Assembly (NCBI GenBank): GCA_963643355.1
Contig: CAVIJE010000001.1
Span: 48,378 to 112,377 of the forward strand
Reading direction: 5' to 3'
DNA: 64,000 bases
DNA from: Sodaliphilus sp.
GTDB lineage: Bacteria > Bacillota_I > Bacilli_A > RFN20 > CAG-826
Below, in pieces: positions 8,032 to 64,000 of this stretch; position 1 is the first letter of the stretch; each line of letters starts with the position of its first letter. The position numbers and the translations under genes were made by a program. The notes below the pieces were generated by a model that was not told the DNA's origin, searched no databases, and worked only from the letters and a program-made list of their open reading frames with translations.

Positions 8032-10080
8032 TTAAATTTTCATAACCGTTTCATATGCGCACCAAATCGCTGAACGGAGGTTTCCGACCTTTTTGCAATC
8101 GCCAACCAAATGGACATTTTTGCCTTCTTGAGTTAATGGAGTTGGTTTATATCCAATCGAAAGAATTACAGTATCAGCAGGAATTTCGATATCGCCATTT
8201 TTCGTTTTGCAAATGATTTTGTCATCTTTTATTTCTTTTAAGCATGTTTCAAGGTAGACAGGAATCTTATGTAATGCGAAATAATCTCTAAGGTACTGGG
8301 AATTTGCCATACATACGCCTTTTTGCTTAACGAGATCGTCCATCGCTTCAACGATTGCAACCTCTTTGCCGTCTAAGGCTAATTCATATGCGCATTCGCA
8401 ACCCGTTAATCCTCCGCCAACAACAACTATTTTGTTGCCGACTTTTGCACCATTTAAGAAATCTGTCGCATCCATTGCTTTTTCAATTCCAGGAAGAGGG
8501 AATTTCTTAGCAACGCTTCCTGTGCAAATTATGTATTCATCTGCTTTGATATCTTTAATATTCTTAATTTCCGTATTGAGGTGAACTGGAATATCCATTT
8601 CTTTCATTTGAAGAATATACCAAGCTAATAAATCTCTTAATTTTCCTTTGAATGAAGCAGCGGAAGCAGGAACAAATACGCCACCTAAATGATCGCTCTT
8701 TTCGTAAATTTCAGGTTTATGCCCACGGAGTTTTGCTACACGTGCCGCTTCCATTCCGCCAATGCCACCACCTATGATAGCGATTGTTTTTGGAGAAGTG
8801 GTTTTCTTAATGTAATGAACATTTGTTTGCATCGTTTCAGCATTAACTGCGCAACGGGCGAGATGTAAGGAATCTTGAAGACTTTGATCGTTTGCCGTTC
8901 CTTTATAGTGGCACATGTTGAAACAGCCGTTGTGGCAATAAATACAAGGCCTTATTTCTTCTGGATGACCTTCTTTAAGTTTAGTTACCCATGCGCCATC
9001 GGCTAAGAATGGACGAGCGTAACCAACTGCATCAATTTTTCCTTCTTCTATTGCCTTTGCGCCTGCGTATGGGGACATTCTTCCCGCAACAACGACTGGA
9101 ATATCAACGAATTTTTTAATATGCTCAACTTCTTCGAGGTTGCAGTTTTCTGGCATATATATTGGTGGATGAGCCCAATACCAAGCATCATACGTTCCGT
9201 TATCGCAGTTAAGCATGTCATATCCTGCATCTTGGAGATATTTCGCTGCTTTTTCTGATTCTGCCATGTCTCTTCCTGCTTCGACGAATTCTTCGCCAGG
9301 CAAAGCTCCCGATCTAAATCCTTTAGTTTTTGATACAACTGAATAACGTAAAGAAACAGGGAAATCCTTTCCACAAACTTCTTTGATTGCTTTAACGATT
9401 TCTACTGGGAAACGATACCTATTTTCAAAACTTCCGCCATATTCATCAGTACGTTTATTGACATATTTAAGAGTGAATTGATCGAGCATATATCCTTCAT
9501 GGACAGCATGGATTTCTACTCCATCCACGCCAGCATCTTTCAATAACTTTGCAGTTTTGGCGAAAGCATCAATAAATTTATGAATTTCCTTGATGGTCAT
9601 TTCTCTAGAAGGAACCTTATCCGACCAAACATTAGGAGAGGCGCTAGATGAAGCGCAAATCTTATCAAAATTTAAAACTGGTTTTGATAAAACGCGTAAG
9701 AATTTATTCGTATAAAGCTTCTCCATTGTTGGAGATATAGTAAACGATCTTCCAAAGCCGGCTGTAAGTTGGATGAACATTTTCGCTCCATGTTTATGAA
9801 TTTCATCCATGAATGGCTTTAATTTTTTAAACATGCCTTTCTTCTTATATAGCCATTGGCCAAACATTGGATTGTAGACTGGCTGAATACCAGGCAAGAT
9901 AAGACCAACATCGTGTTCTGCCTTATCTAGCAAAAACTTTGCTGCTTCCTTATCGAAATGGTTAATCTCCATCCATCCGAATAGGGATGTTCCGCCCATT
10001 GAGGTCATAACAAAACGGTTTTTGATCTCACAGTTGCCAATCTTCCATGGCGTGAAAAGAGGTTCTAATTTTTCATCCAT
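8032..10080 (-). CDS. Old Yellow Enzyme-family FMN oxidoreductase fused to a FAD/NAD(P)-binding domain (2-enoate reductase / 2,4-dienoyl-CoA reductase family)
   Basis: 682 aa. It has an N-terminal OYE TIM barrel and an inter-domain 4Fe-4S motif CIYCHNGCFNMC. The C-terminus has two Rossmann GxGxxG motifs (IAIIGGGIGG and VVVGGGLTG). Confidence 0.8.
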   Translation of the reverse strand: MDEKLEPLFTPWKIGNCEIKNRFVMTSMGGTSLFGWMEINHFDKEAAKFLLDKAEHDVGLILPGIQPVYNPMFGQWLYKKKGMFKKLKPFMDEIHKHGAKMFIQLTAGFGRSFTISPTMEKLYTNKFLRVLSKPVLNFDKICASSSASPNVWSDKVPSREMTIKEIHKFIDAFAKTAKLLKDAGVDGVEIHAVHEGYMLDQFTLKYVNKRTDEYGGSFENRYRFPVEIVKAIKEVCGKDFPVSLRYSVVSKTKGFRSGALPGEEFVEAGRDMAESEKAAKYLQDAGYDMLNCDNGTYDAWYWAHPPIYMPENCNLEEVEHIKKFVDIPVVVAGRMSPYAGAKAIEEGKIDAVGYARPFLADGAWVTKLKEGHPEEIRPCIYCHNGCFNMCHYKGTANDQSLQDSLHLARCAVNAETMQTNVHYIKKTTSPKTIAIIGGGIGGMEAARVAKLRGHKPEIYEKSDHLGGVFVPASAASFKGKLRDLLAWYILQMKEMDIPVHLNTEIKNIKDIKADEYIICTGSVAKKFPLPGIEKAMDATDFLNGAKVGNKIVVVGGGLTGCECAYELALDGKEVAIVEAMDDLVKQKGVCMANSQYLRDYFALHKIPVYLETCLKEIKDDKIICKTKNGDIEIPADTVILSIGYKPTPLTQEGKNVHLVGDCKKVGNLRSAIWCAYETVMKI

Positions 10081-10211
10081 ACTTTTTTCTCCTTGATACG
10101 AAATTATTATATAAAATTATTTTTATATCAGTCTATAATTATCGGTTTAAAAATATGCATTTCGTGCAATAAAACAAGACGCATAATAAAATACATTACG
10201 AAGGTGAATTT

Positions 10212-13933: not shown

Positions 13934-14009
13934 GGGACATTAGCTCAGTTGGGAGAGCGTCTCGTTCGCAACGAGAAGGTCGACGGTTCGATTCCGTTAT
14001 GTTCCACCA
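13934..14009 (+). tRNA. tRNA-Ala (anticodon CGC), with the 3' CCA encoded
   Basis: Manual cloverleaf. The acceptor stem is GGGACAT/ATGTTCC with the Ala-identity G3:U70 pair. The D-arm is GCTCAGTTGGGAGAGC and the anticodon stem TCTCG/CGAGA holds loop TTCGCAA, so the anticodon is CGC. The T-arm is GACGG-TTCGATT-CCGTT. Discriminator A is followed by CCA. Confidence 0.9.
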
Positions 14010-14047: not shown

Positions 14048-14071
14048 AAGCGGCAATTGTGCCGCTTTTTG
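14048..14071 (+). terminator. intrinsic terminator after tRNA-Ala
   Basis: AAGCGGCAATTGTGCCGCTT hairpin plus a T-run. Confidence 0.55.
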
Positions 14072-14202
14072 TATATTCCAATAATAAATTGACTTTTAGT
14101 ATCTAAATAAATGGTTTTAGTTGAAACGAGCCGCCTTAAATATATAATAAGATTAACAGCTAAGTAATTAGATTTTCGTTTCTTTCCGAAGGGAGACAAA
14201 AA

Positions 14203-15297
14203 ATGAATAAATCATCAGCGAAAAGGGTGCCTTGGACATTGTTGTCCTTGCCATTTTTACTGTTAATTTTGTGCCCTCATAACCCAGCAACGCAAGAATT
14301 TACAATGCCATTTTGGCAAAGAGCTATAACAGATGAAAATTCTTTCGATATTTTTACTGGCAAAAAATATTTTGAGAATTTGACTAAGAAAACATTAAAT
14401 GATTCCAACTTGAAAATTGAAAACGCGAAATTTCTTCCAGTTATCGTTGATGGTGCTATCCAATATTGTTACTATTTCGATTTTGAATTTGATGATGGGT
14501 ATGCAATTTTTGATGATGAAAAAATCTATAAACGAGTTTCGTACGGGGATTATCCTTGGATATATGACCATGACATTTACTATGATTTGGAGGGTGGGTT
14601 TCTCGCCTACGACGAAGAGACTTGCTCTTTCTTGAAGGTTGATGAGACCACTGGTAAAACGTTAGGCGAAACATATAATGCTGATATTTCCGAAACTGCA
14701 TACGATAATGTTGATGGTGAAATAAAAACTGCAGAATTGCAAAACTATGTTTCTACGGTTCATCCAGAATGTGGATTGGCCAAAACTGTTTTGATGACTG
14801 ATTACGTTAAAATGTCTATGTCAATTAATAGCTTTTATACGAATCGCTATTATTACGATGGAGTTAGACAAGGGGGTTGGTATACGGAAGGCAACTGTGC
14901 ACCAAACGCAATGACTTCATTTTTATACAATCTTCCAACGGCAAAATCGCCAAGTGGCACAAGATACAATTACTGCTCTAACCTTTTAGATGGAAGAACT
15001 GTAACGAATAGATATGAATACTTTTCGAAGCACTTGGATACGTTTTCTGATTTGCTATCAGACAATATTTATCTCCTAGGTGAAAATGGCAATTATAAGT
15101 CGGAATGCAATAGCATCCCACAAGATGGAAGAAGTACAGAGTGGAAACTGAAAGAAAGTAATAATGCTACTTGGGAAAAAAGCACGGACTTATACTGGCA
15201 GGTAAGAAACGAGCCGCGCTGGTTCGACCCTAATAGAGGCTCTGTTAACAATTATTTTTGCACAAAAAGGAATTCATTGACTTTGGAGGGATGCTAA
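14203..15297 (+). CDS. secreted Cys-rich protein (9 Cys) with a possible papain-fold / C39-like peptidase motif
   Basis: 364 aa with an N-terminal signal peptide (LLSLPFLLLILC). The segment GNCAPNAMTSFLYNL resembles the catalytic-Cys segment of C39-like / BtrH-like papain-fold peptidases. It is the first gene of a three-gene coupled operon. Confidence 0.45.
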   Translation: MNKSSAKRVPWTLLSLPFLLLILCPHNPATQEFTMPFWQRAITDENSFDIFTGKKYFENLTKKTLNDSNLKIENAKFLPVIVDGAIQYCYYFDFEFDDGYAIFDDEKIYKRVSYGDYPWIYDHDIYYDLEGGFLAYDEETCSFLKVDETTGKTLGETYNADISETAYDNVDGEIKTAELQNYVSTVHPECGLAKTVLMTDYVKMSMSINSFYTNRYYYDGVRQGGWYTEGNCAPNAMTSFLYNLPTAKSPSGTRYNYCSNLLDGRTVTNRYEYFSKHLDTFSDLLSDNIYLLGENGNYKSECNSIPQDGRSTEWKLKESNNATWEKSTDLYWQVRNEPRWFDPNRGSVNNYFCTKRNSLTLEGC

Positions 15298-15975
15298 ATG
15301 AAACGTTTTAAGAAGAAAAATGCATTGTTTGTCGCGCTTGCAGCGATACTTTGCTCATGCAATAGCTCTTTAAATTCGGCTCTTGATTCGTTCACTGAAG
15401 ATGTGAGATCCACTAAGTATGAAGATGGTATAACACGGGATGCTCTTTTTGATAAACCATATTCATTGCAAAATGGCAGCATTTTACGTGTTTATGGCAT
15501 TAGTTTTAGAGACGGTTTCTTGAAACTTTCCGTGCATTTTACGAAAACGACTGATTGCAAAGCTACTAATTTTTCGGCTTATCTTGAACTGGAAGGCGCA
15601 AAAAAAGGAGGCCTTGCGTTTCACACGCTAGAAGGTGCTGAGGGCGTTATAAAACTTCCATTAGCCACTGAGCTTGACGAGGATTGGGCAACCAACTTAG
15701 AAAATGTAAATATGGATTTTTTATTTAAGATACCAGAAGATTGCATTTCCATAATACAAAATGAATACAACAAAGATAAGTACGTTGATTATTATCTTGC
15801 CACAGATTTTGGCTTAGGCCCTCGTGACTATTGGGATGATACGGATGAGGATAGTATCGCGGCGATATATAAGTCGTTTTATCAGGACATAGATGCAAAT
15901 TACTTATTAGCGGATATGAAAGGCGAAGAACTGCCATACGAATTTAAGTCTGATTACTCGATTGTTACATATTAA
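15298..15975 (+). CDS. lipoprotein of unknown function
   Basis: 225 aa with a signal peptide and lipobox (AAILCSC). Its ATG directly abuts the TAA of the upstream gene (TAAATG). Confidence 0.7.
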   Translation: MKRFKKKNALFVALAAILCSCNSSLNSALDSFTEDVRSTKYEDGITRDALFDKPYSLQNGSILRVYGISFRDGFLKLSVHFTKTTDCKATNFSAYLELEGAKKGGLAFHTLEGAEGVIKLPLATELDEDWATNLENVNMDFLFKIPEDCISIIQNEYNKDKYVDYYLATDFGLGPRDYWDDTDEDSIAAIYKSFYQDIDANYLLADMKGEELPYEFKSDYSIVTY

Positions 15976-15980
15976 GAAAT

Positions 15981-17333
15981 ATGATACACATAATTCTAGG
16001 CGAAGAAATTTTTGTTGATGGTCATACGGGTTGCTTCGCTAAAACTCAAGATGATTTGAACTTAACAGTCTCAAATTCTTTCGATTTTGATAAATACATT
16101 CCTAATTTTGATGAATATAAAACAACTTCGGTAACTTTTTGCATAAACTTTTCAAATGCCTGCAATTTAAAATGCGATTATTGTTTTAATGACAAGAAAG
16201 ATGGCGAAAGTTTAAATTTAGATGATATTTATGTCTTTCTTGATAGATGTTTCACTACCTTTCCAAATAAGGAAAAATATTTTGTTGATTTATCAGGAAA
16301 GGGCGAGCCTCTTTTGTTTTTGAAGAAGATTTTAGAAATTAAAAGATATTGCGATAACTGGTCGAATAAATTAAGGCGAGAAGTTTTGGTGCAGTTTGTG
16401 ACTAATGGAACGTTGCTTTCGAAAGAAGTCGCTGAAATTTTACAAAAGAATGGAATCCTGCTTGGTGTTTCACTAGATGGAGATGAACTAACTCACAACA
16501 AACATCGTAAAGATCCCAATGGAAATCCTACTTACAAGCAAGTTATTAACAATGTAAAAGCTATTGAACATCATGAGTATGTTGGCGCTGCTTGCACGCT
16601 AACAAAAGATGTTTTTTCTTTAAACGATTCTTTAAATGAACTTTCTAAAACTTTCAATACCGTGTCGTATAAACCAGCAAGAAATTGCTTTGAATCTTTC
16701 GATGAAGAATCTCTTAATCAATGGCTTTCTAGTTATGATGAACTTGTTAAAGCTTTAATTGAAGAATCACTAGGCGGAGATATTAGAAGAACTAAAATCT
16801 TGTTAAACGGTGAAGATTATCTTGGAAAATTCATGCATAGAGTTATCTTAAACCAAAGAACAATAGTTCGTTGCGATGCAGGATTATCAAGGTTTGCTCT
16901 AGATAAAGACGGTGCGATTTATGCTTGCCCAGCATCTTCGTTAATGGATAAATTTTCAATTGGTAAGGGTTTTGCTATTGATTTTTCAAAATCCAGAGAG
17001 ATGTTTAAGGAGCAAACAGCCAACTCTTTATGCCATGAATGCGATTTCCGCTACCTTTGTGGAGGAGAATGCCCTGTCGAAAAACATCTTTCAAATGGAG
17101 TTAATAAAATAATGTGTCGTTACAAATCTCATCTCATTTTATTAAGCATCTATTTTGCGCTTACTTTGTTTGAAAGAAATCAAAAGGCATTCTTCGAACT
17201 AAGAGATTTTTGCCTAGAAGTAAACGCTAGAAAGAAACTTGATGCTAAGTTGATGACATTTTTAGATGAAAATCCTCAATTAAGTTTCATTGAAGGAAAG
17301 AAAATCTTTGACTCATTACAAAAACGTTATTGA
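15981..17333 (+). CDS. radical SAM enzyme with a C-terminal SPASM domain (anSME / peptide-maturase family)
   Basis: 450 aa with the CX3CX2C motif CNLKCDYC near residue 60. The C-terminal auxiliary-cluster pattern is C..(gap)..C, then CHECDFRYLCGGEC (CX2CX5CX3C), then ..C. Confidence 0.85.
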   Translation: MIHIILGEEIFVDGHTGCFAKTQDDLNLTVSNSFDFDKYIPNFDEYKTTSVTFCINFSNACNLKCDYCFNDKKDGESLNLDDIYVFLDRCFTTFPNKEKYFVDLSGKGEPLLFLKKILEIKRYCDNWSNKLRREVLVQFVTNGTLLSKEVAEILQKNGILLGVSLDGDELTHNKHRKDPNGNPTYKQVINNVKAIEHHEYVGAACTLTKDVFSLNDSLNELSKTFNTVSYKPARNCFESFDEESLNQWLSSYDELVKALIEESLGGDIRRTKILLNGEDYLGKFMHRVILNQRTIVRCDAGLSRFALDKDGAIYACPASSLMDKFSIGKGFAIDFSKSREMFKEQTANSLCHECDFRYLCGGECPVEKHLSNGVNKIMCRYKSHLILLSIYFALTLFERNQKAFFELRDFCLEVNARKKLDAKLMTFLDENPQLSFIEGKKIFDSLQKRY

Positions 17334-17544
17334 CTGATAAATTGATATTTGCTTAGGAATTGCAATTAAATTTTAACAATAATTTTAGAAACAAAGGCTT
17401 TTGTTCAAAAATCGAAATATCTAAAAATACACGCTGAAACCCCAACGAAATTTATGAAATAAGCAAAATAACAGTTCATAAGAAAAAATAATTGTTGAAA
17501 TTTAAGAATTTATATGTAAAGTTTTTGTATCGGCGTCGATGAGG

Positions 17545-17806
17545 AAGAGTAATTCTTAAGATTCTGATAGAGAGTTCCGGATGGTGGAAGCGGAATAGAG
17601 GAAGAAGAATGAACATGGCCTTGGAGCTGAAAGGTGAAATTAAGTAGCCTATTCCGGGTATGCCCGTTATAGCAAATGAGTTTGATAGAACTCTCAAAGA
17701 TAAAACTAGCGATAGTTTTATGAAGTAAGGTGGTACCACGGGCAAGAATCAATTCCCGTCCTTAGTGAACATTGATTTGTTTATTAAGGACGGGATTTTA
17801 TTTTCC
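17545..17806 (+). promoter_or_regulatory. T-box leader, probably Met-specific, controlling metNIQ
   Basis: A long stem I (GAGAGTTC 17570-17577 pairs with GAACTCTC 17688-17695) contains AGAGA and a candidate specifier AUG-A at 17609-17612. The T-box sequence AAGGTGGTACCACGGG is at 17728-17743. The terminator hairpin CCCGTCCTTAG...TAAGGACGGG plus a T-run lies at 17755-17806, just before the metN SD and ATG. Confidence 0.65.
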
Positions 17807-54929: not shown

Positions 54930-55090
54930 TCATAAAAATATAAAAATAAGAATATTAAACATGTTATTATTTGTGCACCGTGCATAAAGTTTTAACATGT
55001 TTTTTCTTTAAATTTCCACAAAAAATCGATGAATAGTGGATTTTTTCAAAAAGTTAAGATGACACCTATGTTTTTGCATGGAAAAAGTAG

Positions 55091-55119
55091 TTGACTACGT
55101 ATACGCGTAGAGAGATAAT
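55091..55119 (+). promoter_or_regulatory. sigma-A-type promoter of the S10 operon (TTGACT-17-GATAAT), followed by a structured leader of about 130 nt
   Basis: Consensus -35 and -10 elements with a 17-nt spacer. The leader (55126-55251) is more GC-rich than its surroundings, consistent with an autoregulatory r-protein leader. Confidence 0.55.
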
Positions 55120-55251
55120 TTTTCACGCTGACGCAAGCAAGGAAGTGCGATGTTGCTGACACACCGATACACGTTGTCGAGTAACGGCTTAGTTAGGAAA
55201 CTCGCATGGAGCCCAAATCAAGCAAGCCTGGTGAAATAAGGAGGAAAAATC

Positions 55252-55566
55252 ATGGCGAAACAACAAGTCCTGCGCATCAGATTGCAGGCTTACGACCACA
55301 AGATCATCGACGTCGCAGCCGAAAAGATCATTGAAGTCGCAGACAAAACCGGCGCCAAAGTCATTGGCCCAGTACCTCTCCCAACGGAGAAGCAAGTGTA
55401 CACAATCTTAAGAGCTACCTTCAAATACAAGGATAGCCGCGAGCAATTCGAAATCCGTACACACAAGAGATTGATCGATGTTGTCAATCCAACAAAAGAA
55501 ACAGTCGAAGCCATTCGTAAGCTTGACTTACCAAATGGTGTCGATATCGATGTCACAGCGAAGTAA
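55252..55566 (+). CDS. rpsJ: 30S ribosomal protein S10
   Basis: 104 aa, canonical S10. Confidence 0.95.
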
Positions 55567-55580
55567 GGAGGAAAACATTC

Positions 55581-56264
55581 ATGAAATCCATTATCGGAAG
55601 AAAAATTGGAATGACCGAAGTCTTCGCAACTGATGGAACAATGTATCCAGTCACTGTCATCGAAGTCCTTCCAAACGTTGTCGTTGCTAAAAAGACAACC
55701 GAAAAAGATGGCTATGAAGCATTACAAGTTGGCTACGAACCAATCGCTGAACGCCACCTCAATAAATGCGAATTAGGCATTTATAAAAAATCCAACGTTG
55801 CTACACACGCACATTTATATGAATTAAAAGGCGAAGAAATTTATTCCAAGAACGTTGGTGAAACCCTCACAGCTGATTTATTCCAAGCTGGTGAAGTGGT
55901 TGACGTCATTGGCACAACCAAAGGACATGGTTATACCGGCGTCATCAAGAGATATCACAAGCACATTGGTCCAAAAGGCCATGGTTCAGGATATCACAGA
56001 CAAATTGGTTCACTTGCCAATAACGGCCGTTGCAATAACCGCGTTATCCCAGGTAAGGTCATGTCTGGACATTGGGGCCCACATCAAGCAACAATCCAAA
56101 ACATCACTGTTGTCGCTTCCAATGTTGAAAAAGGATACATCCTTGTTAAAGGCGGCGTCCCAGGACCAAAAAAATCGATCGTTATGATCAGAAGCGCGAT
56201 CTTAGAACAATTCAGAAAACCAGAAGTCAAAGAATTAATTGATCGCAGCAAGAAAGGAGAATAA
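55581..56264 (+). CDS. rplC: 50S ribosomal protein L3
   Basis: 227 aa, L3 pattern. Confidence 0.95.
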   Translation: MKSIIGRKIGMTEVFATDGTMYPVTVIEVLPNVVVAKKTTEKDGYEALQVGYEPIAERHLNKCELGIYKKSNVATHAHLYELKGEEIYSKNVGETLTADLFQAGEVVDVIGTTKGHGYTGVIKRYHKHIGPKGHGSGYHRQIGSLANNGRCNNRVIPGKVMSGHWGPHQATIQNITVVASNVEKGYILVKGGVPGPKKSIVMIRSAILEQFRKPEVKELIDRSKKGE

Positions 56265-56269
56265 GAATT

Positions 56270-56902
56270 ATGGCAACAAAAGCAATTACTCTCCCAGTCG
56301 TTTCATTAGCCGGCGAAAAAGTCGGTGAAGTCAAGCTCTCAAACGAAGTCTTCGGCATCACCGCTAAGAATGAACAAGTCGTTCATGATGCAGCCGTTGC
56401 TGAAGAAGCAAACTATCGCCAAGCTACTGCCAAAACCAAAAAACGTCACGAAGTAAGTGGCGGTGGCAAAAAGCCTTGGAGACAAAAAGGAACCGGCCGT
56501 GCTCGTGCAGGTTCTAGCCGTTCACCTATCTGGGTCGGCGGCGGTAAGGTCTTCGGACCAGACGGAAACCAAAGCTACAAGGTTTCCCAAAACAAGAAAG
56601 CTCACGCACTTGCCCTTAAGACAGTTCTCTCCCAAAAGGTTAACAATGGCTTAATCGTCATTGATGAACTCAAAGCTGACAAAGTTTCCACAAAAGACTT
56701 CAAAGCAAATTTAGCAAGTGTCAAAGCCGAGGGCAAAGTTCTTCTCGTCACTTCCGATGAGAAGGTAATCTTAAGCGCCAAGAACATTGATCGCTTAGAA
56801 TTCCGTGCTGTCAACAACATCAGCGTCTACGATGTCCTCAATGCTAATGTCTTAGTTATTTCTAAGAAAGACATTGAAACCCTTGAAGGAGGACTTAAAT
56901 AA
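56270..56902 (+). CDS. rplD: 50S ribosomal protein L4
   Basis: 210 aa, L4 pattern. Confidence 0.95.
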
Positions 56903-57252
56903 TGGCAGCCAAGAAGAAAGTCGAAACAGTTGAAGAAACAAAGAAAACATTTGCTTCCCCAACCCATCATGACTATGAAGTTATCCTTGATCCAGTCATT
57001 ACAGAAAAGAGCATGGCTCTTCTCCAAAATGAAAACAAGATCACTCTTAAAGTTGCATCTAATGCCAATAAGACATCTATCAAGGAGAGCTTCCAACGCT
57101 TATATCAAGTTAGCGTAGACGATGTCAAAGTCATCAACGTTCTTGCTAAGAGCACAACCAGAGGCGGCCGCTATCAAGGTCACATCTCTGGATACAAGAA
57201 GGCCATCATCACCATTCATGAAGGTGAAGCGATTGACCTCTTCAAAGAGTAA
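56902..57252 (+). CDS. rplW: 50S ribosomal protein L23
   Basis: 116 aa with an N-terminal extension. Confidence 0.9.
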   Translation: MAAKKKVETVEETKKTFASPTHHDYEVILDPVITEKSMALLQNENKITLKVASNANKTSIKESFQRLYQVSVDDVKVINVLAKSTTRGGRYQGHISGYKKAIITIHEGEAIDLFKE

Positions 57253-57319
57253 GGAAACACCGTTAAGCATATATCCTTATATATAAGCTTATAAAGAATC
57301 CACTATAGGAGAAAAGAAA

Positions 57320-58153
57320 ATGGCAACAAAAACATACAAGCCATATACGAAATCGAGACGCGAAATGGTCACCCTTTCGTATGAAGACATCACAAAAACA
57401 ACTCCTGAAAAATCATTACTTGCCCCTAAGAAACACACTGGTGGCCGTAACAATCAAGGAGTAATCACCTGCCGTCATCACGGTGGTGGAAACAAAAATC
57501 GTTACAGAATCATCGATTTCCGTCGTAACAAAGATGGAATCCCAGCAACAGTCAAAGCAATCGAATACGATCCAAACCGTACTGCATTCATCGCCTTACT
57601 TTGCTATGCCGATGGTGAAAAGCGCTACATCATCAGACCAAAAGATCTCAATGTTGGCGCAAAGATCATCTCTGGGGCAACCACTGATATCAAGACAGGA
57701 AACAATCTTGAATTAAGAAACATTCCAGAAGGTACATTTGTTCACAACGTTGAACTTATGCCAGGAAAAGGCGGACAACTCTGTCGTGCTGCTGGAACAG
57801 GCGCACAAATCCTCGGTGCTGATGGCAAATATGTCATCATCCGCTTAGCTTCTGGTGAAGTTAGAAAAGTCTTAGGCGTTTGCCGTGCAACAATCGGTAT
57901 CGTCGGTAATGAAGACTACAACCTCGTTAACAGAGGTAAGGCTGGTAAAACACGTTACAAGGGCATCCGCCCAACAGTTCGTGGTTCAGTCATGAACCCT
58001 GTTGATCACCCTCACGGTGGTGGTGAAGGTAAGTGTCCAGTCGGACGTAATGCACCACGTACCCCTTGGGGTAAGAAAGCAATGGGTGTCAAGACCCGTC
58101 GCGTTAAGAAGAATTCTACACGCCTCATCGTAAGACGTAGAAATTCTAAATAA
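57320..58153 (+). CDS. rplB: 50S ribosomal protein L2
   Basis: 277 aa, L2 pattern. Confidence 0.95.
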
Positions 58154-58170
58154 GGAAAGGAGATCAAAAT

Positions 58171-58458
58171 ATGTCTCGTTCAGCTAAAAAAGGACCATTT
58201 GTTGACGAATACCTTCTCAAAAAGGTTGAAGCCATCAAGAAATCCGGCAAAAAAGAGGTCATCAAAACTTGGTCTCGCCGCTCGACAATCTATCCAGCAT
58301 TCGTCGAACAAACCTTTGCTGTCTATAACGGCAAGGAACACATCACCGTCTATGTCACAGAAGATATGGTTGGACATAAACTTGGCGAATTCGCCCCAAC
58401 CCGTACCTTCCCTGGTCACCATGGTAATAACCTCAATGACCAAGCAGCTAAGAAATAA
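58171..58458 (+). CDS. rpsS: 30S ribosomal protein S19
   Basis: 95 aa. Confidence 0.95.
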
Positions 58459-58468
58459 GGAGTAGATT

Positions 58469-58978
58469 ATGGCAGAAGAAAAGAAAACCGTAAAGAAAGC
58501 TCCAGCCAAGAAAGCTGCAGCTCCAAAAGCCAAGAAAGAAACCGTTAAGGAAGAAGTCAAGGCTACTGAAGTAAAAGAAACCAAGAAAGCTTCCAAGAAA
58601 GCAGTCAAGGCCGAACCTGTTAAAGAAGAAAAGCCAGCTGTTACCGAAGCTCTTGCTGTTGCAAAAGACGTTCGCGTCACCCCACGCAAAGTTCGCTTAG
58701 TTATCGATCTTGTCCGTGGTAAAGATGTTGATGAAGCTCTTGCAATCCTCAAAAATGTCAACCGTGCTGCTAGCGCACCAGTCTACAAGATCATCAAATC
58801 TGCAGCTGCTAACGCTACCAACAACTTCGGAATGGACGGCAACAAATTATATGTTGCTGAAATCCAAGCTTCCGATGGCATCAAGATGAAGAGATTCATG
58901 CCACGTGGCAAAGGATCCTCTTCCGGATTAATCAAGAGAACAGCCAATATCCGCTGCATCGTCAAAGAAAGAAATTAA
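58469..58978 (+). CDS. rplV: 50S ribosomal protein L22, with a roughly 60-aa Lys/Ala/Pro-rich N-terminal extension
   Basis: L22 core from VTPRKVRLV onward, plus a histone-H1-like N-terminal tail. Confidence 0.9.
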   Translation: MAEEKKTVKKAPAKKAAAPKAKKETVKEEVKATEVKETKKASKKAVKAEPVKEEKPAVTEALAVAKDVRVTPRKVRLVIDLVRGKDVDEALAILKNVNRAASAPVYKIIKSAAANATNNFGMDGNKLYVAEIQASDGIKMKRFMPRGKGSSSGLIKRTANIRCIVKERN

Positions 58979-58991
58979 GGAGAGTAAACTA

Positions 58992-59699
58992 ATGGGTCAA
59001 AAAGTTAATGCTAACGGTCTCCGTGTCGGAATTAACCGTGGCTGGGAAGCCAATTGGTTTGCTTCCAAAAAAGACTACGCGACATTCTTAGGCGAAGATA
59101 TCGCCATCCGTAATTACTTAGAACCTCTTCTCAAAGAAGCGGTTGTAAGCCACATTGATATCGCTCGTAGCAAAAATGACAAAGGCTCCACTGTTATCAT
59201 CAATGCCTTCGTCGCTCGTCCAGGTGTCATTCTTGGACAAGATAACACCAAAATCGCTGCTATCAACAAAGGCTTAAAGAAAGTTGTTAAATCTGGTGCT
59301 GCTACCCTCAACCTCGTTGAAGTCAAGAACCCAGATCTCGACGCTACCTTAATTGCCAAGTGGATCGCTTCCGAAATTGAAAATCGTCAATCTTTCCGTT
59401 CAACACAAAAGAAGGCGATTCAAAGAATGAAAAAGGCTGGCGCACTCGGTTGCAAAACCCAATGCCAAGGCCGTCTTGCCGGTGCTGAAATCGCCCGTCG
59501 CGAAGGTTACAAAGTTGGTGTCGTACCACTCGAAACACTCCGTGCCGACATCGATTATGCAGCCGTCACCGCTAATACCGCTTATGGCGATATTGGTATC
59601 AAAGTCTGGATCTGCCGCTCTGCTAATACAGTAAAAGCTGCAGAAACCGAAGAAAAGAAAGAAGGAGGACATGACAATGCTACAACCAAAGCGCGTTAA
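58992..59699 (+). CDS. rpsC: 30S ribosomal protein S3
   Basis: 235 aa with KH domain. Confidence 0.95.
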   Translation: MGQKVNANGLRVGINRGWEANWFASKKDYATFLGEDIAIRNYLEPLLKEAVVSHIDIARSKNDKGSTVIINAFVARPGVILGQDNTKIAAINKGLKKVVKSGAATLNLVEVKNPDLDATLIAKWIASEIENRQSFRSTQKKAIQRMKKAGALGCKTQCQGRLAGAEIARREGYKVGVVPLETLRADIDYAAVTANTAYGDIGIKVWICRSANTVKAAETEEKKEGGHDNATTKAR

Positions 59700-60228
59700 G
59701 TATCGTCGTCCACATAGACTCTCCTACGAAGGCGTTGCCTCCAAAGGAAACACAGTCGAATTCGGTGAATACGGCCTTGCCGCAACCGAAGGTGGATATC
59801 TTGATAACCACCAAATTGAATCAGCTCGTATCGTTCTTGCAAAATACACCGATAGAACTGGTAAAGTTTGGATTAGAGTCTTCCCTCACTTAGCAAGAAC
59901 TAAGAAACCAGCCGAAGTCCGTATGGGTTCCGGTAAAGGTTCACCAGAGAGCTGGGCAGCTGTTGTTAAGAAAGGCAGAGTCATCTTCGAGATTGGCGGA
60001 GTCAATCCTGAAGTTGCCATCAAAGCCCTTCACCAAGCTGGCTTCAAACTCCCGCTCAACACAAAAATCGTCAAGAGAACAAAAGCCTTAAGCGATGCTG
60101 AATTACTTAAGATGGAAGAGCAACACGAATCCTCTCTTGAACAAATCGAAGCTGAAGATCAAATCGAAACTGTCTCTGACACAGGAAATGAAACTCCAGC
60201 AGCAACCACTGAAGGGGGAAATAAATAA
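59671..60228 (+). CDS. rplP: 50S ribosomal protein L16, with an acidic C-terminal extension
   Basis: L16 core plus an acidic tail of about 45 aa. Confidence 0.9.
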
Positions 60229-60440
60229 TGACCATTAAAGAATTAAGGGCCTTGTCCCCTAAAGAGCTCGATGAAAAGATTGCTGAATTAAAGCAACATC
60301 AATTCGAACTCCGCCGTCAAGCAGCCGTCGGACAATTAGAACATCCAGATGACTTGCACTTCGTCCGTAAGGACATTGCTAAAGCTGAAACCGTTAAACG
60401 CGAGAGAGAACTCCAAATTAACGCTTCAGAAAGCAAATAA
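60228..60440 (+). CDS. rpmC: 50S ribosomal protein L29
   Basis: 70 aa. Confidence 0.9.
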   Translation: MTIKELRALSPKELDEKIAELKQHQFELRRQAAVGQLEHPDDLHFVRKDIAKAETVKRERELQINASESK

Positions 60441-60458
60441 TGAAAGGAGACCACAAAC

Positions 60459-60809
60459 ATGGAAAGAAATACAAGAACAAAATTCCAAGGTGTTGTTACT
60501 TCAGTAAAAATGGATAAAACCATCACTGTCACAGTTTCCACCAAACAAAATGATCCCCTTTATCAAAAGAGAGTCGGATATTCCAAGAAATATCACGCTC
60601 ATGATGAAAAGAACGCTGCCAAAGTCGGCGACGTTGTAACCATCATGTCCTGCCGCCCTATCTCCAAAACCAAGAAATTTATCTTAGTTTCCATCGATAA
60701 GGCCGCAGCAGCTGGCGCAAACGCCAACGATGTCGAAGCCGCACTCGAAAAGAGCGAAGGCTCCGATGAAATCGTTAATGAAAGCGTTAAAGCAGAAGAG
60801 GAGAAATAA
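60459..60809 (+). CDS. rpsQ: 30S ribosomal protein S17, with a C-terminal extension
   Basis: S17 OB-fold core plus an Ala/Glu-rich tail of about 35 aa. Confidence 0.9.
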
Positions 60810-60811
60810 GC

Positions 60812-61180
60812 ATGATTCACAATGAAACTAATCTTGTAGTCGCTGATAACTCCGGCGCTCGTGCAGTCCGTGTCTTCCGCCTTTATGGCGGATCACACCG
60901 CAAAATGAGCTCCATTGGAGATGTCGTCCTCTGCGCTGTTAAAGACGTTACCCCAAACGGCAAGATCAAAAAAGGTCAAGTCGTCAAAGGTGTCATCGTG
61001 AGAGTCAAACGCGCTGTCATCCGTAAAGATGGTTCTTCCATCTCCTTCGATGATAATGCTGTCGTTCTCATTGATAATGACGGAAACCCACTTGGAACAC
61101 GTGTCTTCGGACCTGTTGCTCGTGAACTTCGTGACAAAGGCTATATGAAGATTATCTCTTTAGCCCCAGAAGTCTTATAA
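60812..61180 (+). CDS. rplN: 50S ribosomal protein L14
   Basis: 122 aa. Confidence 0.95.
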
Positions 61181-61192
61181 GGAGAAAACAAC

Positions 61193-61504
61193 ATGAACAT
61201 CAAAACTGGTGATAAAGTTATCGTTCTCTCTGGCGATGATAAAGGCAAGATCGGCGTTGTCCAAAAGGTTTATCCTAAGTTGAACAAAGTCGTTGTCGAA
61301 GGTGTCAACGTCCACAAGAAACACAAAAAACCAACCCAAGCTACTCCAGAAGGATCCATCCTCGACATTTATGTCCCATTCGATGCTTCCAAAGTCGCTT
61401 TGATTGATCCAAAAACAAAGAAAGCCACCCGCGTCCACAAAAAGATTGTTGATGGCAAAAAGATTCGCGTAAATGCGAAAGGCGAAAGCTTAGAAAAGAA
61501 ATAA
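61193..61504 (+). CDS. rplX: 50S ribosomal protein L24
   Basis: 103 aa with KOW motif. Confidence 0.95.
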   Translation: MNIKTGDKVIVLSGDDKGKIGVVQKVYPKLNKVVVEGVNVHKKHKKPTQATPEGSILDIYVPFDASKVALIDPKTKKATRVHKKIVDGKKIRVNAKGESLEKK

Positions 61505-61518
61505 GGGAGGAATGAAAA

Positions 61519-62151
61519 ATGGCTGAAGAAAAGAAAACTGTTAAGAAAGCTTCCCCTAAAAAAGCTTCCGAACCAAAAGCTGCTAAGACAGTCGCCCCAA
61601 AGGCTGGCTATGTTAACCGCTTAGAAACAAAATATCACGATGTGGTTGTTCCAGCTCTTGTCAAAGAGTTTGGCTACACCACCCCAATGCAAGCTCCTAA
61701 ATTTGAGAAAATCGTCATCAACATCGGTGTTGGTGATGCCACCTCAAATAGCAAAGCTCTTGATGACGCTGTTGCTGAACTTGCTACCATCACTGGTCAA
61801 AAACCAGTCGTCACAAAAGCCAAAAAGTCCATCGCGACATTCAAACTTCGTCAAGGACAAGCTATTGGCTGCAAAGTTACACTCCGCGGTGTAAGAATGT
61901 ATGAATTCTTCGATAAGTTAGTTTCCATCTCTCTTCCACGCGTCCGTGACTTCCGTGGCGTCTCCAAGAACGCTTTCGATGGCCGTGGTAACTACACCCT
62001 CGGTGTCAAGGAACAATTAATCTTCCCTGAAATCGACTACGATAAGGTATCTAAGATTCGTGGTATGGATATCGTCATCGTTACTACAGCAAATTCTGAT
62101 GAAGAAGCATTCGCCCTCCTCCGTGAGATGGGAATGCCATTCAAGAAATAA
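61519..62151 (+). CDS. rplE: 50S ribosomal protein L5, with a roughly 30-aa Lys/Ala/Pro-rich N-terminal extension
   Basis: L5 core. The first 11 residues, [11 protein letters not shown], are identical to the N-terminus of L22. Confidence 0.9.
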
Positions 62152-62163
62152 TGAGGTAAGCAC

Positions 62164-62349
62164 ATGGCAAAGAAAAGTTTAGTTAATAAGTGCAACCGTC
62201 CACAAAAGTTCGCAACACGTGAATACACACGTTGCCAACGCTGTGGTCGTCCACACGGCGTCCTCCGTAAATTCGGATTATGCCGTATCTGCCTCCGTGA
62301 AATGGCCTACAAAGGCGAGATCCCAGGCATGAAGAAAGCATCTTGGTAA
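62164..62349 (+). CDS. rpsN: 30S ribosomal protein S14 type Z (zinc-binding)
   Basis: 61 aa with CxxC...CxxC. Confidence 0.95.
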
Positions 62350-62367
62350 GGAAAGGAGAACACTAAC

Positions 62368-62763
62368 ATGAACGCAGACCCAATTGCAGACATGCTCACA
62401 CGCATCAGAAACGCTAATGCTCTTCGCTACGAAAGTGTTTCCATGCCTTATAGCAAAATGAAAGGCGAAATTGCCAAAATTCTCTTAGACGAAGGATTCA
62501 TCTCTGGATTCGTCGCTGAAGGAGAAAAAGCAAGCAAAACCCTTCACATCACTCTTAAATATGGTGCCAATGGCGAAAGAGTCATCACCGGATTAAAGAG
62601 AATCAGCAAACCAGGACTTCGTGTCACTGTCGAAGCTGATAAGATCCCAAGCGTCTTAAAAGGACTTGGTATCGCAATCGTTTCTACTTCCAAAGGCGTT
62701 TTAACCGATAAGGAAGCAAGAAAGAACGGCGTTGGCGGAGAAATCCTCTGCTACGTCTGGTAA
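62368..62763 (+). CDS. rpsH: 30S ribosomal protein S8
   Basis: 131 aa. Confidence 0.95.
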
Positions 62764-62795
62764 TCTAGGATTACAGAAAGAAGAGAATAACAATT

Positions 62796-63353
62796 ATGTC
62801 ACGTATTGGATTTAAACCCATCGCTCTTCCAGAAGGCGTTACCTACGAAACAGTCGATAGCGTCATGACCGTCAAAGGCCCTAAAGGCGAAGTAAGCGTC
62901 AGAATTCCTTCTGATGTCAGCGTCGAGGAAGCCGACGGCCACCTCCATGTTAAGCCACTTGCCCCTGAAACAAAGCAAGGCAGTGCTAACCATGGAACAA
63001 CAGCAGCTTTATTAAATGCTGCTGTTGTCGGTGTCCATGAAGGTTGGAAGAAAGAATTAGAAATCAACGGTACCGGTTACCGTGCCTCCGTCAAAAATGG
63101 CGAAGTTACTATGTTCTTAGGCTACAGCCATCAAATCACCGTTGCCCCAGTTGGCAAATATACAAAGATTAGCTGCCCAGACGAAACTCACATTGTCGTT
63201 GAAGGCTGCAATAAGCAAGAAGTTGGCCAAACTGCCGCTCTCATCTATGACAAGCATAGACCAGACGTTTATGGCCAAAAAGGTGTTCACTACAAAGGAC
63301 AACACCTCATCAAGAAAGTTGGTAAGCGTGCTGCTGCCGGCGGTAAGAAATAA
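62796..63353 (+). CDS. rplF: 50S ribosomal protein L6
   Basis: 185 aa. Confidence 0.95.
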   Translation: MSRIGFKPIALPEGVTYETVDSVMTVKGPKGEVSVRIPSDVSVEEADGHLHVKPLAPETKQGSANHGTTAALLNAAVVGVHEGWKKELEINGTGYRASVKNGEVTMFLGYSHQITVAPVGKYTKISCPDETHIVVEGCNKQEVGQTAALIYDKHRPDVYGQKGVHYKGQHLIKKVGKRAAAGGKK

Positions 63354-63368
63354 GGAGGTAAATAGAAT

Positions 63369-63725
63369 ATGATCAAAAAAGAAGCAAGATCAGTCGTTCG
63401 TGAACGCAGACACCTTCGCGTTCGTGAAAAGATCTCCGGTACTGCTGAGTGCCCACGTTTAGTCGTCTTCCGTTCCAACAAACACATCGAAGCTCAAATC
63501 ATCGATGACGTCAAAGGAACAACCCTCGTCAGCTCTGGCTCTGTCCAACTCAAATTAGCATCTGGTTCCAATTGCGAAGCTGCTGCTAAGGTTGGTGCAG
63601 ACATCGCCAAAAAGGCTGTTGCCGCTGGCATTTCGAAAGTCGTTTTCGATCGTGGTGGCTATCAATACCACGGCCGCGTCCAAGCTCTCGCTGACGCTGC
63701 TAGAGAAGGAGGCTTAGTCTTCTAA
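63369..63725 (+). CDS. rplR: 50S ribosomal protein L18
   Basis: 118 aa. Confidence 0.95.
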
Positions 63726-63735
63726 GGAGTTAATT

Positions 63736-64000
63736 ATGGAAGAAAATAAAACTGTTAATGCTGTAGAAGAAAAGCCAGCTAAAGAAAAAAATCCAACAGG
63801 CAATCCACAATATGAACCACGCGGTTCCCGTGGATCCGAACGTCCAGGAAGCCGTAAATTCGGCAACCACAAAGGCAAACCAGGTGAAAGACGTGGTGGA
63901 CGTGGCGGTTTCCGTCGCGTTGAAGACGATTTCCAAGACAGAGTCGTTACCATCAACCGTGTTACCCGTGTTGAACAAGGTGGTAAAACCATGCGTTTCG
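63736..64000 (+). CDS. rpsE: 30S ribosomal protein S5 (5' part; it continues beyond the window), with an Arg/Gly-rich N-terminal extension
   Basis: An ORF from ATG 63736 stays open to the window end. The S5 motif VVTINRVTRVEQGGK follows an RG-rich extension of about 60 aa. Confidence 0.85.
   Translation, partial: MEENKTVNAVEEKPAKEKNPTGNPQYEPRGSRGSERPGSRKFGNHKGKPGERRGGRGGFRRVEDDFQDRVVTINRVTRVEQGGKTMRF

Follow-up and report, generated by a model that had tools for sequence, protein, structure and literature searches.

What does a radical S-adenosylmethionine (SAM) enzyme modify when the genes beside it encode full-size secreted proteins? The question is raised by a 64,000-nucleotide (nt) stretch of a Sodaliphilus sp. 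contig (GenBank CAVIJE010000001.1, positions 48,378 to 112,377; the whole stretch is called the window here), where three plus-strand open reading frames (ORFs) in tight series form one operon: g1, for a secreted protein; g2, for a lipoprotein; and g3, for a radical SAM (rSAM) enzyme with a SPASM domain. SPASM rSAM maturases act on small precursors of RiPPs (ribosomally synthesized peptides that are modified post-translationally), and a few act on one dedicated protein (sulfatases, QhpC). A sequence-only reading of the locus had reported the three ORFs with the positions and lengths found here, and had proposed that g3 acts on the co-transcribed secreted protein and not on a small peptide. Recurrent linkage of the genes and the lack of a small precursor ORF spoke for this proposal, while the g1 copy of the window itself proved to be a likely inactive allele. 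The analyses described below make it reasonably likely that a Sec-exported protein encoded alongside the rSAM/SPASM enzyme is modified by it at the C-terminal Cys tail before export, probably via a thioether.

Comparison of gene neighborhoods revealed that a g1-like gene, a small lipoprotein gene and the rSAM gene recur as a trio at loci L001-L007, in six different genomic contexts, as would be expected from the earlier proposal; in L004 the gene order differs (rSAM-g1-g2). Within the trio the rSAM enzyme is the most conserved member (49-67% identity), followed by g1 (30-53%) and g2 (17-31%). Beside distant rSAM relatives the neighbors were C39-like or unrelated, yet all of them ended in Cys. 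The cassette is widespread in low-GC Bacillota and Mollicutes-like bacteria and is uncurated, and the rSAM family comprises at least 135 clusters (90% identity) at E ≤ 1e-20. Neither the tail nor the rSAM family is covered by a model in Pfam or NCBIfam, and no description of the system was found in the openly searchable full-text literature, subscription-only papers being outside the search.

A profile search with the family-specific C-terminal half of the rSAM protein collected 58 metagenomic loci, all of which were scanned mechanically. This half was used instead of the full-length alignment, which, as a query of genome contigs, amounted to generic SPASM patterns and retrieved mostly other families. 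The family was represented by 49 non-redundant loci, 47 of them with a neighboring ORF in range, and at 35 of these 47 a same-strand neighbor of at least 150 amino acids (aa) ended in Cys. Among the ORFs neighboring the rSAM gene, 38/207 were Cys-ending compared to 21/712 (2.9%) in the background (Fisher p = 9e-13), while the count at other SPASM rSAM loci (13/94) was at chance level. Within the window, g1 is the sole Cys-ending ORF among the 64 non-overlapping ORFs of at least 100 aa. At most of the exceptional loci the contig ends inside an open ORF bearing a signal peptide, and two other exceptions, L018 and L139, are borderline members from double-glycine/PCAT-type systems. At these two (L018, 7123-8313; L139, 6974-9163) the rSAM relatives score about 155 bits, and beside them lie a protein of 396 aa whose leader is of the double-glycine type (...AVNGG) and an ABC transporter that has a C39 domain. 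They represent a separate, RiPP-like system and delimit the family.

The rSAM-paired secreted proteins, termed cargo here, were encoded by 31 distinct genes, all on the rSAM strand (31/31) and 18 of them directly adjacent to the rSAM gene. They are 290-750 aa in size and fall into 15 clusters unrelated by BLAST, which include the g1 family (C39/C10-like), a putative cysteine peptidase family (NF045837, 112 bits), Peptidase_S8 (1e-29), MACPF (1.5e-12) and DUF6973. A signal-peptide-like N-terminus was present in 23/31. The 31 tails follow the general pattern [S/P]-[S/G]-C-stop, with S (12) or G (5) at position -1, S (11) or P (11) at -2, and a hydrophobic residue or P at -3. Because the stop codon after the terminal Cys is TAA or TAG in 27/31 genes, this residue is not an artefact of TGA recoding. 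The sequence-only reading had emphasized that g1 is rich in Cys; its 9 Cys in 364 aa were confirmed, but the relevant trait is the invariant C-terminal Cys of otherwise unrelated neighbors. Position -1 is S, G or A in 18/31 tails, and the tail was also considered as a C-terminal lipobox for Lgt; this was judged unlikely, -2 being often Pro and no hydrophobic segment preceding the Cys. Two loci have unusual cargo arrangements. In L014 (4095-9262) a single rSAM gene lies between two paralogous cargo genes, whose products of 435 and 430 aa both end CGCGALMEC; a small lipoprotein gene follows each of the two, and a further, third lipoprotein-like ORF comes after them. In the metagenomic locus L105 (2870-6810) the cargo gene, whose product is 749 aa long in L104 and L108, has been split by an insertion sequence (IS) with two transposase ORFs, and the rSAM gene is intact, which makes it a further independent instance of disrupted cargo.

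Domain analyses of g3 showed that it belongs to the Radical_SAM family (PF04055, 49.8 bits against a gathering cutoff of 29.5). This core was all that Pfam picked up, the Pfam SPASM model having no match at E < 0.1. SPASM assignment required the motif CX9-15GX4C...CX2CX5CX3C...C together with a hidden Markov model (HMM) score above cutoff, and the NCBIfam SPASM model TIGR04085 matched residues 293-396 with 47.4 bits (cutoff 27), in agreement with the CX3CX2C motif and full SPASM domain described earlier. In an alignment of 15 diverse homologues, C61, C65 and C68 as well as the SPASM residues C298, C316, C351, C354, C360, C364 and C379 are invariant, whereas C236 is not conserved. None of the curated-family cutoffs among the NCBIfam profiles was reached: the best match was the PapB ranthipeptide maturase (NF047865, 155.8 bits, cutoff 340), followed by QhpD (TIGR03906, 102 bits, cutoff 453), the anaerobic sulfatase maturase (anSME; TIGR03942, 97 bits, cutoff 349) and the SCIFF maturase (TIGR03974, 77.5 bits, cutoff 425). 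The best solved relative was CteB (PDB 5wgg, E = 2e-38), and then ChlB and anSME (about 1e-18; anSME about 4e-18). In the loop of auxiliary cluster I, HMM alignments gave a single Cys for the g3 family (RCDAGLSRF), like CteB (GCGSGHEYL), where anSME has CGMNGTCTC; going by the published CteB and anSME structures, this single-Cys pattern presumably corresponds to an auxiliary cluster I at which a substrate thiolate could occupy an open site. The rSAM core of g3 is preceded by no more than about 50 residues, and residues ~32-77 of CteB have no counterpart in the alignment, so that g3 lacks a full RiPP recognition element (RRE). By eye, the ~26 N-terminal residues resemble the first strands of CteB, with an alignment score there that is not significant (-2.3). 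The enzyme is 450 aa long in all conspecific alleles compared, while g1 breaks, and the ratio of nonsynonymous to synonymous substitutions (dN/dS) of 0.11 against the conspecific contig L001 points to purifying selection.

The g1 family is assigned to the clan-CA, papain-fold (streptopain/C39-like) cysteine peptidases with an N-terminal prodomain-like region, the predicted Cys-His-Asp/Asn set being present. Peptidase_C39_2 (cutoff 24) matched the intact homologues P0007 (29.4 bits), P0009 (28.9) and P0005 (24.8). The homologues are 462-473 aa long and all nine end in Cys; the only conserved Cys in the family are C89, C232 and the C-terminal one. In the AlphaFold model of a family protein the last four residues have a pLDDT below 50, which suggests that the tail is flexible or disordered. 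The tail consensus is SL-x-W-x-x-C, with W replaced by L in the window allele, which has the signal-peptide-like N-terminal segment of a secreted protein. The earlier call of a papain/C39-like segment was sound, although the motif given for it, NC[AG]P.A.M, does not match as written and the sequence reads GNCAPNAM. What could not be seen from the sequence alone is that the 364-aa product comes from a 473-aa gene shortened by an in-frame deletion. In L001, whose flanks are 97-100% identical to those of the window, a 473-aa g1 (P0001) lies at the same place. Relative to it, the window lacks P0001 residues 336-444, including H405 and D437, conserved in 9/9 full-length sequences, and the stretch matching Peptidase_C39_2; Pfam accordingly has no match for the 364-aa protein. 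With this His/Asp half deleted, the peptidase of the window is probably inactive.

Further alleles revealed that g1 is frequently disrupted in the species. The identical 327-nt deletion is present in a second assembly (P0149), and the window protein is identical to P0154, a member of its 90% cluster, which an exact-sequence look-up itself did not return. A -1 frameshift at a homopolymeric G/A tract occurs in P0147, P0151, P0153 and P0156, in two allele lineages; in L150 (4970-4978) the tract is G2A6 as compared to G3A6 or G4A5, and the frame downstream is intact and ends ...SLTWEGC. A frameshift that destroys the tail also occurs among the conspecific alleles. Among 11 alleles read, 3 are intact (4 with P0158, judged by length only) and the others are disrupted. 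The G/A-tract frameshifts could represent phase variation or recurrent pseudogenization; dN/dS of g1 against L001 is 0.08.

From the association we infer that the tail is the substrate and that it is modified ahead of export. In the mechanism favored here, cytoplasmic g3 would recognize the extreme C-terminal tail of the co-encoded Sec-exported protein, in this case g1, as a beta-strand-like stretch followed by [S/P]-[S/G]-Cys-COOH, and would act at or through the invariant last Cys before the tail exits the cytoplasm. The terminal Cys, as thiolate, would occupy the open site on auxiliary cluster I in the same way as the substrate Cys of CteB; a nearby tail residue would then lose a hydrogen to the 5'-deoxyadenosyl radical, and the carbon radical so formed would be trapped by the sulfur. 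The product would be a small C-terminal macrocycle still able to pass SecYEG: a Sec substrate leaves the cytoplasm C-terminus last, and a ring of few residues or a change of a single one should not block translocation. Thioether formation in the tail is a guess by analogy, placed first because CteB, PapB and QhpD make thioethers and because the cluster-ligand pattern is like that of CteB. PapB chemistry needs little beyond a thiol and a carboxylate acceptor, and the C-terminal carboxylate is accepted (PMC12373016).

Several observations weigh against this mechanism. The rSAM-cargo adjacency demonstrates linkage and not a substrate relationship, and the terminal-Cys survey consists of mechanical ORF calls on metagenomic contigs, in which related lineages may be over-sampled. 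Two loci with full context, L131 (ending ...GCS) and L013 (unclear), have no terminal-Cys neighbor. Scores far under every cutoff mean that the chemistry of a characterized family is not transferable to g3. The repeated breakage of g1 in a species that keeps g3 intact would be odd if g1 were the sole g3 substrate. Finally, no acceptor residue is common to the tails, a second upstream Cys occurring in some subfamilies and not in most; the thioether partner can therefore not be named, and an oxidation of the anSME or MftC type is a serious alternative.

According to that alternative, the target is the same terminal Cys, and anSME-like abstraction of the C-beta hydrogen or MftC-like oxidative decarboxylation yields an aldehyde or enethiol. 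Such a product could be a reactive C-terminal handle, either a built-in peptide-aldehyde inhibitor that keeps a protease latent or a means of covalent capture at the surface. In its favor, a lone invariant Cys with no conserved partner is more in keeping with a one-residue change than with a cross-link, the cargo that can be identified are mostly cysteine or serine proteases, and anSME ranks high among the curated and solved matches of g3. Against it, the g3 family does not have the additional Cys ligand of anSME and its alignment with CteB is the better one, the same tail occurs on MACPF and other cargo that are not proteases, and the decarboxylation step is the analysts' own conjecture; no earlier example of such chemistry at a C-terminal Cys is known to us. 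This account is considered unlikely. Membership of g3 in anSME proper, with a canonical sulfatase as substrate, had been named at the outset as one of two outcomes that would refute the earlier proposal. It was rejected on the score below cutoff, the missing Cys and the absence of a linked sulfatase motif: no Cys/Ser-x-P-x-R sulfatase was found linked to the rSAM gene, the PF00884 neighbor in L116 being without the motif and LtaS-like.

The retention of the rSAM gene while g1 decays in the species would also be compatible with a looser relation, in which the terminal Cys and the rSAM enzyme are tied by co-regulation or a shared niche (for example, extracellular disulfide formation or metal binding) and the rSAM substrate is an unrelated small molecule. 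Tight same-strand adjacency over 15 unrelated cargo clusters in many contexts is difficult to reconcile with this, and the characterized relatives with significant scores (PapB, QhpD, anSME, CteB) all act on peptide or protein substrates, which leaves it distinctly improbable.

The lipoprotein g2 was considered both as partner and as possible target. Its N-terminus, MKRFKKKNALFVALAAILC-S-C, has the positively charged n-region, hydrophobic h-region and lipobox of a predicted bacterial lipoprotein, as the sequence-only reading had called it, and Cys21 is invariant in 7 homologues; apart from the lipobox Cys, few positions are conserved. The g2 family has six representatives among 1.84 billion proteins and is restricted to the g1 subfamily. 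The gene evolves fast: compared to the L001 allele (9423-10097), g2 has 70% aa identity and a synonymous divergence (dS) of 0.89, where the flanking genes are 96-100% identical, which points to replacement of the allele or to diversifying selection acting on a surface protein. An AlphaFold model of moderate confidence gave a beta-sandwich with weak similarity to the B. subtilis lipoproteins YcdA and YjhA. A match of g2 to P0166, a 4941-aa TAXi-repeat protein, was dismissed as a short-motif coincidence. An ORF with a lipobox lies beside 16/31 cassettes and is not homologous between subfamilies, so the lipoprotein is a partner in the window and not a universal one; g2 is treated here as a putative cargo-specific surface partner, which in the favored mechanism would belong to its subfamily.

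The place of g2 between g1 and g3 in the window, and its conservation in the g1 subfamily, might suggest that the enzyme targets not the tail but the lipoprotein, or else a residue inside the peptidase, for instance the catalytic Cys of GNCAPNA, since C-A-P around Cys232 resembles the sulfatase motif C-x-P-x-R. However, the limited and non-homologous distribution of lipobox ORFs, with only the lipobox Cys conserved within g2, does not fit the former, and the latter is countered by the absence of GNCAP from the subtilase, MACPF and other rSAM-paired cargo and by the missing motif Arg in g1 (C-A-P-N-A). Both variants were thus considered very improbable.

A search for a precursor peptide covered the ORFs around the operon down to a length of 20 aa and, by clustering, 486 small intergenic ORFs of 59 loci. 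Neither the cassettes nor their flanks contained a small ORF that is conserved, the sole cross-locus cluster being translated tRNA genes; a small precursor and a RiPP cluster were rejected on this basis, in line with the earlier statement that the operon encodes none. That g3 might still be an ordinary RiPP maturase with its small precursor elsewhere or missed, and with secreted neighbors that are unrelated or are processing proteases, is scarcely credible: the nearest curated families are all RiPP maturases, and C39-like peptidases and subtilases are classic leader-peptide proteases, but besides the lack of a small ORF, g3 has no full RRE, the cassettes have no export ABC transporter, the neighbors carry Sec signal peptides where leader peptidases act in the cytoplasm or at the transporter, and the Cys ending of unrelated neighbors, MACPF included, would be left unexplained.

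Comparison with characterized systems helps to place the proposed modification of the tail. With the CteB/SCIFF maturase and the PapB family, g3 shares the rSAM core, the 7-Cys SPASM domain and, as in CteB, the single Cys at the auxiliary-cluster-I loop; it differs in lacking most of the RRE and in having a C-terminal extension of ~65 aa, and the partners are signal-peptide proteins of 290-750 aa with a terminal Cys, no six-Cys SCIFF or CX3D/E-repeat peptide being near g3. QhpD likewise is a SPASM rSAM enzyme that cross-links Cys of an exported protein subunit before export, with its substrate in the same operon and a subtilisin-like protease, QhpE, in the qhp system. In contrast, g3 has the peptidase, the lipoprotein and metNIQ as neighbors instead of qhpA, qhpB, qhpC and qhpG, and the candidate substrates are large and diverse with only the tail in common. 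In the anSME-sulfatase pair, a SPASM rSAM enzyme modifies a single Cys/Ser of a full-length Sec-exported enzyme in the cytoplasm, with neither leader peptide nor RRE; here the conserved Cys is the C-terminal residue, and the extra cluster ligand is missing. Streptopain (C10), staphopain (C47) and Peptidase_C39_2 share 14-15% identity with the g1 family, which adds the invariant C-terminal Cys tail and the rSAM linkage. LPXTG/sortase, PEP-CTERM/exosortase and GlyGly-CTERM/rhombosortase also combine a short C-terminal tag on unrelated exported proteins with a dedicated enzyme nearby. This is an analogy only: those tags hold a transmembrane helix and are handled by membrane transpeptidases or proteases outside the cytoplasm, whereas the present tail would be a few residues ending in Cys, read by a cytoplasmic rSAM enzyme.

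The layout of the locus is given in Table 1. The tight coupling described earlier was confirmed for the 5-nt gap between g2 and g3; the reported TAAATG overlap is not one, as the TAA of g1 abuts the ATG of g2 at 15295-15300 with a 0-nt gap and no base in common. The operon stands directly 3' of tRNA-Ala(cgc), which is a separate transcription unit, and a promoter of its own is indicated by a consensus pattern match only, in a region with no excess of such sites. Upstream, on the minus strand, Pfam identified a Y-family polymerase (IMS) and YolD, and the spacers have 22-26% GC as compared to 38% for the window; these surroundings are as first described. Downstream, a T-box leader (126 bits, 17527-17766) with a terminator hairpin at 17754-17795 opens the metN-metI-metQ (metNIQ) transporter operon, the boundary of the cassette. 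Farther along, positions 55000-64000 have a higher GC fraction (0.42-0.47), a strong positive AT skew and a run of plus-strand ORFs of 210-277 aa, and look like a ribosomal-protein operon.

Table 1. Coordinates of the features discussed, in the window unless another locus is named.
Feature	Position	Strand	Remarks and basis
tRNA-Ala(cgc)	13934-14009	+	ARAGORN; Rfam tRNA, 67 bits; directly upstream of operon
Hairpin terminator after tRNA-Ala	14048-14067	+	Terminator-like hairpin
Best sigma-70-like promoter match, TTGAAA-16-TATAAT	14121-14148	+	11/12 consensus matches
Shine-Dalgarno sequence of g1, AAGGGAG	14189-14195	+	Sequence
g1	14203-15297	+	364 aa, cargo gene; ORF call
Cys232 codon of g1, invariant EGNC motif	14896-14898	+	Predicted catalytic nucleophile; alignment column
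G3A6 homopolymeric tract in g1	15173-15181	+	Point of -1 frameshift in conspecific alleles
Deletion junction in g1	15206/15207	+	327 nt (109 codons), in-frame relative to L001; DNA and protein alignment
C-terminal tail of g1, LTLEGC, invariant terminal Cys	15277-15294	+	Proposed rSAM target
g2	15298-15975	+	225 aa, lipoprotein; ORF call
g2 lipobox LCSC (...AILCSC)	15349-15360	+	Sequence
g3	15981-17333	+	450 aa, radical-SAM/SPASM enzyme; ORF call
CX3CX2C of g3 (C61-X3-C65-X2-C68)	16161-16184	+	Motif
7-Cys SPASM region of g3	16872-17117	+	Motif/HMM
Family-specific C-terminal extension of g3, ~65 aa, conserved	~17133-17330	+	Alignment
tRNA/tmRNA at cassette, L005	6506-6680		
tRNA/tmRNA at cassette, L116	4663-4739		
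tRNA/tmRNA at cassette, L119	4786-4860		
tRNA/tmRNA at cassette, L133	4984-5058		
tRNA/tmRNA at cassette, L115	3347-3691		
tRNA/tmRNA at cassette, L008	8509-8584		

The flanking Y-family polymerase/YolD pair and AT-rich spacer had given the locus an island-like appearance in the first description, for which the window offered no support. As already noted in the first description, neither flanking direct repeats around the operon nor an integrase among the ORFs at 11-21 kb were found, and the conspecific strain has the same arrangement at the same site; a genomic island at the tRNA was thus rejected for the window. At ~7/36 loci from other organisms the cassette has a tRNA or tmRNA gene, of varying identity, as its immediate neighbor, and IS3-type transposases lie by it in L115 and L126, the latter also with a large serine recombinase. 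Such neighbors indicate that the cassette is often at sites typical of accessory DNA, though the window is without island hallmarks. A tblastn search of g3 against PLSDB gave no plasmid match at 1e-20. A role in anti-phage defense was rejected, PADLOC having returned generic viperin-type and subtilase similarity only.

The system resembles the anSME-sulfatase and QhpD-QhpC pairs, in that an exported protein would undergo cytoplasmic radical modification, yet g3 falls below the threshold of every curated family; what is new relative to those pairs is a terminal Cys tag common to unrelated cargo. The secreted proteins linked to this one rSAM family are full-size and belong to at least 15 unrelated families whose sole common trait is the invariant C-terminal Cys, and because so many unrelated exported enzymes and toxins carry the tail, the tag behaves like a maturation or sorting signal and not like the cofactor of one enzyme. 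Tentatively, and with rather less confidence than is placed in modification of the tail itself, the cassette may be a Cys-tail protein-tagging system of gut and anaerobic Bacillota and Mollicutes-like bacteria, in which an rSAM enzyme with no full RRE marks diverse Sec-exported enzymes and toxins (cysteine peptidases, subtilases, MACPF pore-formers) at their last residue, as a signal of maturation, latency or surface retention that is possibly read by the co-encoded lipoprotein. If so, there would be no earlier case of a tag that a radical-SAM enzyme makes on full-length secreted proteins and that works like a sorting signal, and the reach of radical peptide chemistry would grow to include a general protein tag with a very short, defined recognition element, of use for enzymatic C-terminal macrocyclization or labeling. 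For wall-poor gut Firmicutes it would mean a new control of secreted proteases and pore-formers, and in view of the strain-level decay of g1 the locus may be involved in host interaction or in phase-variable surface biology.

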